A stretch of DNA of 64,000 nt from an uncultured Verrucomicrobiae bacterium (GCA_963706715.1 CAVPNI010000003.1:704001-768000); one strand, 5' to 3'; positions 48,084 to 52,911 are shown, counted from the stretch's first letter. Notes: a model not told the origin generated them from the sequence alone. Program-made: numbers and translations.

Positions 48084-48937
48084 TTAATGAATTTGGCGGA
48101 GAGCAGATGGAGGAATCGTCTGCTCAAAAATAATTTCTGTCCCATAGCCCTTTGCATTCGGAGTTGGTAGAACTCTCATCGGGCCTGTGGAAGGCTTGAT
48201 TCCTAAGGAGCGTAATACGGATGTGTTGATTTCAAATACTGCGCCCGGCAGACCTCGATTGGGAGATAGCCCCAAATACATCTGAGCCTCGATCGGCATG
48301 CACCAGCGGGCGTGGTGAATACCTTGCCGGAGATTGCACCGGGCTGTAATCCGTGCTCCAGGATGTTCGCGGCATTTCCCTGTCCCGTGTAGTGGTAGAG
48401 CTTAGCTGGAAGTGCCTTTGCAACCGCCGAAGAGGGCCCACCATGCAACGCTTTAACCCCAGCCTGTCCAGCCGGACTCCCAATCAGCGGTTTGACCGCA
48501 CTTCTAACAAAATCCCCGACGGCGGGAACAAACGCCACTCCGGCCATTGCAAGGCTGGCACTGGTTCCGAAGCTCCAACCTTGGGTTCTGCCAACATTCC
48601 ACGCTGCTGTCACATCTCTTGCGTCCGCGACCTGTCCATAATATGGCACTAAACCAGCAACAAATTGCCCCGCTCCTTTTCCCCATGCTTGAGTTGTGTT
48701 AGTTGATTCATAATAGTCTCCCATCGTGGCTCCTTTAGCAAAGCTAGTAGCGATTCTTCCAGTGGGATCAGTATATTCAATTGGATTTCCGAGAGCAAAA
48801 AGCCCAATCCGCATTTCCAGCGATCGATGCAAAAATGTTGAGGAACTGCTGACAACACGAGCCAGGACGGATGTCGTGCCGGTAAGAAGCAGAAGAAGGA
48901 CGACTAGGGAAAAGAATGTGAAGCGCTTGGAACGCAT
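48084..48937 (-). pseudogene. Cassette A: leader + Rhs tip with HYD1-like ADP-ribosyltransferase, frameshifted near 48300
   Basis: GNPIEYTDPTGR; LYHYT...VFTTP continues in another frame as PIEAQ...GYGTEIIF. Confidence 0.7.
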
Positions 48938-49000
48938 TGTTAACTGCAAAAGTAGATTTCTGTGTCCTCCCAAGTCGCTATGCGATGGGTAGCATAACTA

Positions 49001-49211
49001 GAGCTTGTCCGGAAAACACCAAATTTGCTCGAAAAAGTGATTTCACTCTGTTGGATCCCCATATTTTTATCCATCGATTCGGTCATTTTTCGGCAACGCA
49101 AAAATTATAAATGCCTGATTTTGGAGAAAATGGCGTTTTTCTGGTTTTTTCGCAAAAATTTTTGCCTCCAGATCGTCTTCATTGCTGCTTCTACGGTTTT
49201 CGGACAAGCTC
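49001..49211. mobile_element. MITE family C
   Basis: GAGCTTGTCCGGAAAAC / GTTTTCGGACAAGCTC ends; TAACTA on both flanks. Confidence 0.8.
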
Positions 49212-49214
49212 TAA

Positions 49215-49433
49215 CTAGTGGTGACCCGAACTGGGATAGATTTTTGTGGCGCGTTCAGCAGCCATAATTTGGGTGGCACTCTGTTTACATTTCTTGATTA
49301 GCTCATCAGGATCAGTGCCGGTAGCCTCTACATTACGTCCTTGCTGATCTACTCCAGTTGCTTTGTAAATTCCCATAGAGATTTCATCCGCATCAAAGCG
49401 CCATCCGGGAAGTTCTTCAAATTTGATAGTCAT
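49215..49433 (-). CDS. Putative immunity protein, cassette B
   Basis: 72-aa ORF immediately after the toxin. Confidence 0.7.
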   Translation of the reverse strand: MTIKFEELPGWRFDADEISMGIYKATGVDQQGRNVEATGTDPDELIKKCKQSATQIMAAERATKIYPSSGHH

Positions 49434-49439
49434 AAAAAT

Positions 49440-50362: not shown

Positions 50363-50761
50363 TCACGGCTGCAATTCCCACCACTTAGCGGTCTTCATTT
50401 TCTCGAATACTTGCCTATCGTGTTCTAAAAGCGGTTTCCCATATCGTTGCAAAGCATTTGACAAACGGTTCAGTTCGCATTGAATTTCTTTATTGGAGTT
50501 GGCAATTCCATATCCCAAAGCCTTCTCGATAGATGGATAGAAGACTTTCAAAAACAACCGAAATTGGAAACGGTATGAAGGGGGATTTTCATCAAAAAAG
50601 ATGTCAACTTCACCACGTCCGCTATAAGTTACTTCCATATTCACGGCCATTGAGGTATATCGAACTCTACTTTGGTCCGCGCTCGTTTTGGTGAATCCAC
50701 AACGCTCGACTAAGAACTGAAACTCATTCTGAGCGTGATTCTGAAAATCCGGTTCGTTCAT
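50363..50761 (-). CDS. Putative immunity protein, cassette C
   Basis: 132-aa ORF immediately after the toxin. Confidence 0.7.
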   Translation of the reverse strand: MNEPDFQNHAQNEFQFLVERCGFTKTSADQSRVRYTSMAVNMEVTYSGRGEVDIFFDENPPSYRFQFRLFLKVFYPSIEKALGYGIANSNKEIQCELNRLSNALQRYGKPLLEHDRQVFEKMKTAKWWELQP

Positions 50762-50776
50762 TGTTCGCTTTCCTCG

Positions 50777-51685
50777 TTATTGGCCAGATGGCCTTCTCCA
50801 AAAAACGTCGTTACCCTGTTGGATTCGTTGCCAACTCTGTGAACTCATAAAATCTCGCTCATGTTGCAACCAACCGCCGAGCACATTCGGATTCGCTTCC
50901 CGAATAGGGATTCCGATGTTCATCGCCTTTTGAAGTGCTTGCTGGTTTTGCGCCCAATCCAAAGCCTCCTTTCGTAGCCAAGGCAGATTCAACGTATATT
51001 CTCCAGGTCGGAGCATCGAGAGGTTGAATTCGCTCGCCTTATAAAGAACAAACTTTGGATTCCCTAAGTTCTTTATGAATCCGAATTCCAACTGTACAGT
51101 TTCCTTTGCAAAAGCTTTCGGAACACTGTTAGCAACATTGGTAATCGCTGAAGCCTGCTTCCCAAACAATGGTTTAACAGCCGCCTGAGCAGATAGACTT
51201 TTAGAAGCAATCTTGGTAGGCGCAGAACCCGGTGCAACTATAACCGATCCTGCGGCTACTGCTGTAGCCACTAGTGAATTCGGATCATAGTAGCCATGGC
51301 GTGCATAGGGGGAAAGCCTTTCATTGATCCAAGCTGCGTCCCTGTACAAGTGGTGAGGCTGCCCTATTAAGTCAAATCCAGCGCCTGCGATACTAAAGAG
51401 TGCTGAAATCCCTCCTGGCACGGCATCTAAAACCGTATCCGCAATTGAATGGCTCAAGTTACTGGCCTGTGTCCCTGCGTTTTGAAGAACTGGAGTTGCA
51501 ATTCTCCCGGTAGGATCGGTCCAGTTGACCGGATTTCCGTTGCAAAAAAGCCCAATCCGAGTTTCCAGCGATCGATGCAAAAACGCTGAGGAGCTACTGA
51601 CAACACGAGCCAGGACGGATGTCGTGCCGATAAGAAGCAGAAGAAGAACAGCTAGGGGAAAAAGTGCGAAGCGATTCGGACGCAT
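50777..51685 (-). CDS. Cassette C: leader + Rhs tip, toxin family not identified
   Basis: GNPVNWTDPTGR; tip W..N...AM..G.PIRE....WL..ER.....W. Confidence 0.8.
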   Translation of the reverse strand: MRPNRFALFPLAVLLLLLIGTTSVLARVVSSSSAFLHRSLETRIGLFCNGNPVNWTDPTGRIATPVLQNAGTQASNLSHSIADTVLDAVPGGISALFSIAGAGFDLIGQPHHLYRDAAWINERLSPYARHGYYDPNSLVATAVAAGSVIVAPGSAPTKIASKSLSAQAAVKPLFGKQASAITNVANSVPKAFAKETVQLEFGFIKNLGNPKFVLYKASEFNLSMLRPGEYTLNLPWLRKEALDWAQNQQALQKAMNIGIPIREANPNVLGGWLQHERDFMSSQSWQRIQQGNDVFWRRPSGQ

Positions 51686-51691
51686 TCCTCT

Positions 51692-51937
51692 TTAATTCCG
51701 TTTCTTTGCAAGAGGGTCTCTACTCAGGCTATCGAAAATATACTGGCAAGCTTCCTCCTCAGTGATAAACCAACGTTCTCCAAGCCGTTGGCCGCGCTCG
51801 CTAGCATACACACACCAACCACCAGACTGTGGACGCTCTAACACAAGACTTTGATCCCGGACCTCTCCATCAAGTGAGGCATAGCGTGTATCAACACCTT
51901 CCTTCTCTAATTTTTCTTTCAGTTGCGGAACATTCAT
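51692..51937 (-). CDS. Putative TNT immunity protein, cassette D
   Basis: WCVYASERG...FITEEEACQY; overlaps the toxin stop (ATGA). Confidence 0.78.
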   Translation of the reverse strand: MNVPQLKEKLEKEGVDTRYASLDGEVRDQSLVLERPQSGGWCVYASERGQRLGERWFITEEEACQYIFDSLSRDPLAKKRN

Positions 51938-52911
51938 TTCGACTTCAATACTCCTATATCAATTAATTGTTGAACGCTTAACGGAAGTTGATGCTGAATT
52001 CCTAGACCCGGAGACCCAAAGCCAGGAGCAGATAACCCGGTTTTCACTTGAAATGGTTGAAGCACCTCGTAAGCCTCGTAGGCTACCCCACTTTCATAGC
52101 TGGCAGGTAGTCCTCTGCTTGAAAAGGGCGTTCCCTTTGGAGCAACATAATAACCAGTAGCTCGTGGACCAAATCTATCAATCAAGGTACCAGCCGTCAG
52201 TTCAGTTTCAGTAACACTGCCAAGAAAACCTGCATTACCAGGCCAACTAGTCGGAGTCGCTTGTCCTGAATACGGAACTAAAGCTTTTGTTTGGACGCTA
52301 GCAGCCGAACCCGGCTTCCCAAACAGCGGTTTGACGCCCGATGTAGCAATAGCTCCCTTAGAAGCAATCTTTGTAGGTGCAGAACCCGGTGCAATAATAA
52401 CCGACCCTGCCGCTACGGTAGTAGCCACCAGCGAATTCGGATCATAGAGACCTGCACGAGCATTCGGGGAAAGCCTTTCATTGAGCCAAGCTGCCTGAGC
52501 GTGCAGATGACCTGCCTGCATACCCATTAAATTCATCCCGTATCCCATTGCACTAGAGAGAAGCGAAATCCCTCCCGGCACGGCATCCAGAACCGTATCT
52601 GCAATTGAGTGACTTAGGTTACTGGCTTGTGCTCCGGCATTTTGAAGAAACGGAGTTGCAATTCTTCCAGTGGGATCGGTGTAGACAACGGGGTATGTCT
52701 GTTCTGATGCGATTTGCCAGGATATTTGGATTTTATCCTGTTGATTTACAGAGAGAACGATGATTTTTGGCAGGCTCGTTTGGAGACTGTTGTAAAAAAT
52801 TTTCCAGACGCTGTTTTTTGATGCATCAGGCAGACACGTCCAGACAGCAGCTATGATCCATAGAGCAAGAAGCCATGAAGGCAGGAGTATTCTTTTAGCT
52901 GCGGGGAACAT
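51934..52911 (-). CDS. Cassette D: leader + Rhs tip with TNT-family NAD+ glycohydrolase
   Basis: PVVYTDPTGR; WPGNAGF...IDRFG...APKGTPFSSRGLP...YEV...APGFGSPGLGIQ. Confidence 0.85.
   Translation of the reverse strand: MFPAAKRILLPSWLLALWIIAAVWTCLPDASKNSVWKIFYNSLQTSLPKIIVLSVNQQDKIQISWQIASEQTYPVVYTDPTGRIATPFLQNAGAQASNLSHSIADTVLDAVPGGISLLSSAMGYGMNLMGMQAGHLHAQAAWLNERLSPNARAGLYDPNSLVATTVAAGSVIIAPGSAPTKIASKGAIATSGVKPLFGKPGSAASVQTKALVPYSGQATPTSWPGNAGFLGSVTETELTAGTLIDRFGPRATGYYVAPKGTPFSSRGLPASYESGVAYEAYEVLQPFQVKTGLSAPGFGSPGLGIQHQLPLSVQQLIDIGVLKSK
52304..52692. repeat. 389-bp direct repeat, copy 1 (rhs pre-toxin segment)
   Basis: Matches 60649..61037; both encode PVVYTDPTGR...KPLFGKPGSA. Confidence 0.95.

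Follow-up and report, generated by a model that had tools for sequence, protein, structure and literature searches.

The acquisition of new C-terminal tips by Rhs and other polymorphic toxins has so far been ascribed to homologous recombination with DNA from outside, and orphan tips have counted as silent remnants. The rAID systems of Bacteroidales are recombinase-linked immunity arrays, integrative elements lying in the 3' end of tRNA or tmRNA genes carry a replacement end, and integrons have their integrase beside the insertion point and promoterless cassettes lined up in one direction. The Rhs array analyzed here lies in a stretch of 64,000 nucleotides (nt) (the window, C3:704001-768000) from the genome of an uncultured Verrucomicrobiae bacterium (3.04 Mb in four contigs). 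Its orphan tips begin with short non-rhs leaders, one of which is the end of an integrative element, and the leaders are probably element-borne caps, that is, the arms at the integrase end of integrative elements belonging to one family, which would attach at the conserved end of the rhs core.

According to those sections of the cited papers that treat orphan modules and their neighborhood, orphan rhs-CT/rhsI modules arise by C-terminal displacement (Jackson 2009, Koskiniemi 2014, as discussed in PMC5727410). Rhs-linked integrases of unknown role occur in the bee-gut genera Snodgrassella and Gilliamella, for which a role in toxin capture was suggested, and orphans need not be silent (Steele 2017, PMC5727410). 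In Salmonella, internal promoters and starts express Rhs-CT/RhsI in a toxin-antitoxin-like manner (Starsta 2020, PMC7043789). XerC/D was reported next to polyimmunity loci (Zhang 2012, PMC3482391), and Xer-dependent systems adjoining poly-immunity arrays are cited in a preprint of 2026. In the literature searched, no account was found of an element inserting at the end of the rhs core and providing a leader; the coverage leaves out most subscription journals, so that this is not proof of being unpublished. Papers on chloroplast rhs/primase and on Neisseria dif sites turned out to be unrelated.

Four cassettes, named A to D, were found on the minus strand 3' of the main rhs gene. Each starts with an ATG and a hydrophobic leader whose frame runs on into the Rhs DPTGR motif shortly behind it; a variable tip and a small open reading frame (ORF) follow, the latter located -4 to +15 nt from the tip stop codon. 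The tips share a pre-toxin region of about 130 amino acids (aa). The cassettes have the composition of orphan rhs-CT/rhsI modules: a piece of the rhs core end that holds the PxxxxDPxGx motif, then a variable tip and, next to it, a small immunity gene. Unlike classical orphans, which have no start or N-terminal part of their own, all four carry an ATG and a non-rhs leader. At the junctions (marked here by a slash), the cassettes read F/ALGNPIEYTDPTGR (A), F/CNGNPIGYVDPTGR (B), F/CNGNPVNWTDPTGR (C) and ...EQTY/PVVYTDPTGR (D). An earlier note on this DNA, made from the sequence alone, had located the cassettes correctly within 3 nt and had quoted a leader C peptide that was found again here; its claim that the tips have their own start agrees with the in-frame ATG of all four cassettes. 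The toxin of cassette A is probably dead because tip A is split by a frameshift, and its immunity ORF is intact. Pfam searches with tips A and C, with tip0 (the tip of the main rhs gene) and with all immunity ORFs gave nothing significant.

Leader D occurred four times in the genome (98.6-100% protein identity), each time as the last 219 bp of an element made of a helix-turn-helix (HTH) gene, a primase-helicase gene and a tyrosine integrase gene, so that the linkage of a leader to primase-integrase modules, for which the earlier note had proposed a search in other genomes, was found within the same genome, leader D forming the end of the module that lies next to the integrase. The four element copies were 99.3-99.96% identical; the two intact ones shared 6428 bp, while the copy in the window was reduced to 5.4 kb, being cut by an insertion sequence (IS) at 58118. 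The element showed discrete, identical ends in copies with different flanks and a phage-integrase-family gene at one end. All four copies ended at the same base (...CAGACATAC/), in frame with four different tips starting with PVVYT-, PTNWT-, PVNYV- and GINWT-DPTGR. The primase gene, the integrase gene, the leader-tip fusion and the immunity gene lay on the same strand, separated by 2, 45 and -4 nt. The junction fell at the same codon in 4/4 copies and in a Chthoniobacter relative described below. Repeats at both ends measured 389 bp for the window copy and 11 nt for the relative (L017), and no core was seen in common at the other junctions. The 4 genomes of the same genus, in which an empty site was sought, had no homolog of tip D.

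The element copy on contig C1 adjoined a 948-aa relaxase-like ORF (C1:2998-5844), and this copy may be mobilizable. The end of contig C1 corresponded to an rhs core end and its start to a tip at the matching motif position, which makes a join of the C1 end to the C1 start plausible. Over contigs C1 and C4, two ends fell inside rhs core ends and two starts inside tips, at the same motif position. Since contigs end and begin there, the assembly breaks at core/tip junctions, and extra copies of the element or of tips may be collapsed.

The main rhs gene of the window, read from the whole genome, forms an ORF of 3023 aa that starts outside the window and has its own signal peptide. It reads ...FDLLSYALGNPVVYTDPTGR; its core ends in ...FISPDPLGHAGSFDLLSYALGN/PVVYTDPTGR (...SYALGN at 61038), after which tip0 begins. 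From the exact junction, the main rhs gene and cassette D shared a perfect 389-bp direct repeat (blastn, 100%), followed by complete divergence. This repeat brackets the variable part of tip0, its immunity gene imm0, IS debris, the element body and leader D, an arrangement that fits an insertion which gave the core tip0 and displaced tip D. The repeat also offers a RecA route by which the block would be deleted and tip D exposed again, and it is compatible with site-specific or homologous insertion.

The architecture recurred across phyla. A scan with the integrase (one genome per species) gave 142 relatives, of which 80 were kept, representing 78 distinct loci (43-71% identity) from at least six phyla (Verrucomicrobiota, Acidobacteriota, Planctomycetota, Myxococcota-type, Actinomycetota and Gammaproteobacteria metagenome-assembled genomes (MAGs), among others). 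An ORF of at least 60 aa starting no more than 900 nt after the integrase was present in 73 of the 78 loci. The TIGR03696 profile (Rhs_assc_core) matched 32 of these 73 ORFs at E<=0.01, 26 of them above the curated cut-off, and the addition by eye of L016 and L017, in which only the last ten residues are present, brought the ORFs composed of leader, Rhs core end and tip to 34/73. The start of the match was fixed by lineage (position ~28-31 in most acidobacterial, gamma- and deltaproteobacterial ORFs, 46 in the planctomycete and ~66 in verrucomicrobial ones). In 30 further loci, sequence similar to these ORFs was found farther downstream or 5.3-6.8 kb upstream, on the far side of the body, giving 64/78 in total, a looser count because the queries included leader and tip parts. 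Among the 62 loci whose upstream sequence extended over 3 kb or more, 44 had a primase homolog beside the integrase; for the Rhs-linked loci, the count was 17 of 29.

The nearest relative, a Chthoniobacter MAG contig (L017/L016) whose integrase was 71% identical, displays the inserted unit. The contig reads, in order, rhs core ...YAYTGGD/PVNLMDPFGL-tipX-immX-body-integrase-leader ...NQTV/PVNLMDPFGL-tipX-immX-body-integrase-leader/PVNLMDPFGL-tipY, so that two copies of a 7206-bp unit (tip, immunity gene, body, integrase, leader) separate an rhs core from a tip other than tipX. The three junctions had just 11 identical nt (CCCGTGAACCT). Leader D is homologous to the L016/L017 leader (34% identical to L016). 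Where a genome had tandem copies, the first copy was directly preceded by a full-profile Rhs core end (5/5 cases), within open frames of 1734, 1405, 1665, 427 (cut by the contig end) and 332 aa.

A second scan, in which metagenomes were searched with a primase profile, found 692 relatives; among the 80 that were kept, the integrase lay on the same strand as the primase in 74. Terminal overlaps of 42-127 nt were detected in 5/80 of these contigs. In two of these five (L141 and L169; 6333 and 6917 bp per unit), the order after closure ran from the integrase through a fusion of leader, rhs end and tip to a small ORF (immunity) and the primase. Among viral contigs, none was found with a single primase query, and two truncated loci were found with the primase profile.

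Part of the leader DNA was conserved independently of the encoded peptide. Peptides such as KTRVWG or ENSRLGF, seen in several leaders, proved to be translations, in different frames, of one 18-nt DNA sequence, GAAAACTCGCGTCTGGGG. When up to 2 mismatches were allowed, there were 30 occurrences of it in 158 loci (1.46 Mb), where about 0.06 occurrences would be expected by chance (our own estimate). All 30 were on the integrase strand and none on the other, 127-2961 nt downstream of the integrase. They were distributed over the three reading phases (14, 12 and 4), which points to a constraint at the DNA level, and 26/30 lay within open frames of 111-489 aa (48, 99, 254 and 264 aa for the other four). 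Degenerate copies were present in leader D, in L016 and, abutting the junction, in leaders A-C. The motif was absent, with up to 5 mismatches, from the full-length rhs genes checked, and one weak match was found in L113. Being missing from these genes, it belongs to the element arm and not to the target, and the idea that it is a copy of the rhs target was rejected. It is a candidate protein-binding site. Its arms look by eye like an imperfect inverted repeat around an 8-nt spacer. Together with the position of leader D at an element end, the motif lends support to the earlier guess that the leader DNA may hold recombination signals.

Leaders A-C form a second type. As previously proposed, they are common to the three cassettes, their DNA being a three-copy repeat (78-95% identical), and two diverged copies (45-50% identity) were found in a second rhs array on contig C4. 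A start codon was retained in all five copies, and one of the C4 copies had a 30-nt in-frame insertion. The fixed junction that had been claimed does not hold for all five A-C-type copies, since the copy at C4:20779 (...TGLF/ISPDPFGHFGSLDLHSYANQDGINWTDPTGR) holds more rhs after ...GLF (ISPDPFGH...); the last codons of leaders A-C are thus probably rhs-derived. The cores of leaders B and C (proportion of synonymous differences, pS, 0.03) were far more alike than the adjoining tips (62% protein identity), so the leader behaves as a separate module. Leader A-C DNA did not fold in an attC-like manner any better than its shuffles (z 1.29, 0.74, -0.87, 0.10). An origin of the leaders from an rhs N-terminus by internal deletion, which the earlier note had named as an observation that would overturn its proposal, was rejected: the four full-length rhs paralogs of the genome share a common type of N-terminus (MKALSRILSSLFIAAISVAQG...) with signal peptides unlike the leaders, tblastn with the leaders found only the cassettes, and the hhalign probability was 0.3%.

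An insertion between rhs core and tip would hand the incoming tip to the resident core, and at the same time put the start codon and a short N-terminal peptide of the element in frame with the displaced tip. The inserted unit would be ordered tip, immunity gene, (cargo), HTH/primase-helicase, tyrosine integrase and leader. Once displaced, the old tip would lie, along with the immunity gene coupled to it, at the tail of the primase-integrase operon, still translatable. When the unit is closed, as a circle or in tandem, the same leader would head the cargo tip, so that the toxin gene of the element would span the attachment site. The main benefit of such a cap would presumably be the continued expression of immunity. 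Leaders A-C would be relics of a related element, or body-less cassettes (tip, immunity gene and leader) of it. Held more tentatively, as a possibility we would not count on, is a wider scenario in which small replicative elements spanning phyla (primase-helicase and tyrosine integrase, sometimes a relaxase) attach at the rhs core end with a split toxin gene, re-arm the host Rhs and re-cap the displaced toxin, with a working Sec signal in Verrucomicrobiota; cassettes A-C would then have been moved in trans, as in an integron for in-frame protein tips.

Several observations weigh against the leaders being element-borne caps. No common crossover sequence is visible at the four junctions, and the relative shares just the 11 nt mentioned above. 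In the two intact copies (C1 and C3 copy 2), no rhs core adjoins the 6.4-kb unit at its far end, so that cargo between core and body must be assumed, and the different cargo carried by four near-identical element bodies has no explanation in the model. Twelve acidobacterial Rhs-linked loci lack a primase, and the contigs with terminal overlaps may be collapsed tandems instead of circles. There is no integrase beside leaders A-C, and these leaders were not found outside the genome among 236 candidate proteins, 4 same-genus genomes and 400 sampled genomes of the phylum, the last giving only weak matches to the DPTGR part or to the hydrophobic stretch (E 8e-4 to 8e-3). Between leaders A-C and leader D, the MAFFT alignment was weak and tblastn gave no significant match; the degenerate motif and this alignment link leaders A-C only weakly to the element family. 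At the cassettes, no ribosome-binding site or promoter stands out, and a scan for sigma-70 promoters and terminators gave 2 promoter-like sites where 5.5 were expected, an uninformative outcome. For the check proposed earlier, protein against nucleotide conservation, the proportions of nonsynonymous and synonymous differences (pN/pS) between leaders A and C were 0.112/0.207 (0.049/0.145 over the 34 codons of the core), a ratio of 0.3-0.5 that has low power, as it comes from about 20 changes.

The earlier note had read the leaders as Sec-type signals that make the displaced tips stand-alone secreted toxins. The signal-like look was confirmed by a crude script scoring the hydrophobic peak, a basic n-region and small residues at -3/-1: all six leaders of the genome (A, B, C, D and the two C4 copies) qualified, with a basic n-region, an 11-residue Kyte-Doolittle peak of 2.6-3.3 and small residues at -3/-1, and were stronger than the signals of the full-length Rhs proteins (n=4, peak 1.95-2.7). 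True Sec signals and exported tips would agree with this, with the persistence of the look in the diverged C4 copies despite the in-frame insertion and in the verrucomicrobial relatives L016/L017, L028 and L134, and with the use of signal peptides by the host's own Rhs proteins. Rhs-linked leaders elsewhere were signal-like in just 5/34 cases, however, the other 29 being hydrophilic or very basic. The idea that signal-type leaders track hosts with Sec-exported Rhs was not borne out, as two gammaproteobacterial hosts with signal-like Rhs carry non-signal leaders. Two gammaproteobacterial MAG loci (L114 and L115, in G007 and G008) encode full-length Rhs with signal-peptide-like N-termini, and not the expected PAAR-type heads. 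Given the 5/34 count, the in-frame start is the family-wide feature and the signal look a lineage trait. Further points against exported tips are the frameshift in tip A and the DNA motif, read in three frames, that makes up part of the leader; moreover, no delivery route is known for a tip outside its Rhs shell, Rhs proteins forming cages. The leader may well work as an export signal in this lineage, but stand-alone secreted toxins were not supported, and we consider that explanation unlikely.

Conversely, the leaders could be untranslated attachment-arm DNA that is open in frame by chance, leaving the orphans silent as in the classical picture. The frame-independence of the motif, the lack of clear ribosome-binding sites and promoters, the wide variation of acidobacterial leader peptides and the low power of the pN/pS comparison would all suit it. 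Against it, the frame was open from ATG to tip in 4/4 D-type and 5/5 A-C-type copies, leader B lost one ATG and gained another in frame, most motif sites lay in long open frames, the hydrophobic character was kept at 34-50% identity, and a chance ORF of 73 codons in the right frame would arise in about 1% of cases (our own estimate); silent arms therefore appear improbable. As for ordinary C-terminal displacement by homologous recombination, with the element as a bystander, the perfect 389-bp repeat flanking the window copy, the common pre-toxin region that could drive RecA exchange and the richness of the genome in IS elements would be expected from it. It would not account for four copies ending at the same base before four different tips without homology on the left side, for Rhs ends flanking integrase relatives in 64/78 loci across phyla, or for the Chthoniobacter unit with only 11 nt in common at its junctions, and it is very improbable. 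Element-borne caps remain the preferred reading, and the positions of the features on which it is based are given in Table 1.

Table 1. Features of the Rhs array and its surroundings, in positions of the window
Feature	Position	Strand	Evidence or remark
Main rhs gene, 3' part	60267..64000	-	RHS_repeat Pfam match, translation, full ORF and N-terminus read from the genome
Direct repeat copy 1, 389 bp	60649..61037	-	blastn; starts exactly at core/tip junction; encodes PVVYTDPTGR...KPLFGKPGSA
Candidate immunity gene of tip0, 81 aa	60025..60270	-	start overlaps rhs stop codon; no Pfam family
IS fragment, 336 bp	59562-59897	+	many genomic copies
Tn5-type IS	58118-59561 (transposase 58199-59554)	+	Pfam Dimer_Tnp_Tn5 / DDE; many genomic copies; removes, with the IS fragment, the far end of the element copy
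Truncated copy of 6.4-kb element	52693..58117	-	Pfam matches, four genomic copies, common unit, identical end
HTH regulator of element	57199-57660	+	Pfam
Primase-helicase, 1024 aa	54047-57121	-	Pfam
Tyrosine integrase	52956-54044	-	PF00589, E 1.9e-38
Leader D, 73 codons	52693..52911	-	element terminal arm, 219 bp; starts 45 nt past integrase stop
Degenerate 18-nt motif in leader D, AAAAACAGCGTCTGGAAA	52801..52819	-	~110 nt before junction
Direct repeat copy 2, 389 bp	52304..52692	-	N-terminal part of tip D
Tip D	51934..52692	-	common pre-toxin region, then TNT-family domain PF14021, E 7.5e-25
Candidate immunity gene D, 81 aa	51692..51937	-	start overlaps tip D stop codon (ATGA)
Leader C, 47 codons	51545..51685	-	ATG 7 nt past stop of immunity gene D
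Degenerate motif in leader C, GGAAACTCGGATTGGGCT	51549-51566	-	abuts junction
Tip C	50777..51544	-	toxin domain matches no known family
Candidate immunity gene C, 132 aa	50363..50761	-	ORF adjoining tip C
Leader B	50166..50312	-	homologous ATG lost, 1-nt indel, new in-frame ATG upstream
Tip B	49440..50165	-	TNT-family domain PF14021, E 2e-20
Candidate immunity gene B, 72 aa	49215..49433	-	homolog 3' of related tip at C4:11819
Repeat like a miniature inverted-repeat transposable element, 215 bp	48999..49213	.	between immunity gene B and leader A; 27 genomic matches
Leader A, 47 codons	48797..48937	-	in-frame ATG
Tip A	48084..48796	-	frameshift near 48300; other frame carries on at 48084-48299; no family for either piece
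Candidate immunity gene A, 121 aa	47716..48081	-	intact ORF

On the minus strand, the main rhs gene is followed by the 81-aa ORF, IS debris, the HTH/primase-helicase/integrase body (the HTH gene being on the opposite strand) and cassettes D, C, B and A. Two small ORFs also lie within the window copy of the element. Within the array and near it lie short repeats with many copies in the genome (215 bp; ~150 bp at 47400-47550; 336 bp at 59562-59897) and several IS copies, and the locus is undergoing erosion by transposable elements. Elsewhere in the window, the segment at 28000-31000, with an ABC transporter ORF at 28219-30084, displayed a guanine plus cytosine content of 54-60% compared to ~45-50% outside it and may be foreign DNA. 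A 497-aa Fic/DOC-domain protein was encoded at 24975-26468, adjoining a DNA polymerase III alpha gene, and a 435-aa ORF at 41453-42760.

Should a dedicated and widespread element indeed insert at the core/tip boundary, toxin/immunity pairs would have in it a specific vehicle for passing from one bacterium to another. Such an element would account for the repeated presence of integrases next to Rhs arrays and for the ordered accumulation of orphans, and the in-frame leader would account for continued immunity to the displaced toxin.

Compared to classical orphans, in the form in which these are discussed in the source cited above, the locus likewise shows an array of tips and immunity genes 3' of a full-length rhs gene, whose tips keep the core-end motif and could be recruited again by recombination. 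These tips, however, are not headless: each has an ATG of its own in a leader foreign to rhs, one of these leaders forms the end of a probably site-specific element, and the joints do not vary by so much as a codon. As in the bee-gut Rhs loci, integrase genes recur beside Rhs arrays; the target site, element structure and leader described here do not figure in the passages on Snodgrassella and Gilliamella. The likeness to Salmonella, as far as the pertinent part of that study goes, is that orphan tips could be transcribed and translated on their own, which would help to keep the locus. In Salmonella, rhs sequence itself contains the promoters and a CTG start, whereas here the start and a peptide with the look of an export signal come from foreign element DNA.

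Poly-immunity loci, as presented in the passages concerned, also have a tyrosine recombinase beside immunity genes and toxin fragments, with which the integron-like idea is associated. Unlike them, the present element includes a primase-helicase (and, in one copy, adjoins a relaxase-like ORF), lies inside an expressed rhs gene, would swap its tip and has its leader fused to the displaced one. The elements of tRNA and tmRNA genes resemble it in having the integrase beside the attachment site, a target gene that stays whole and tandem copies at one site; they differ in that the target here is a protein-coding toxin gene, the replacement end is not the same but a new toxin, and the displaced end gets a new start. 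Integrons, finally, share the integrase at the insertion point and the cassette array in one direction, whereas in the present array the leader DNA has no folded attC-like site, each cassette continues the reading frame of a leader, and the integrase comes from a replicative element.

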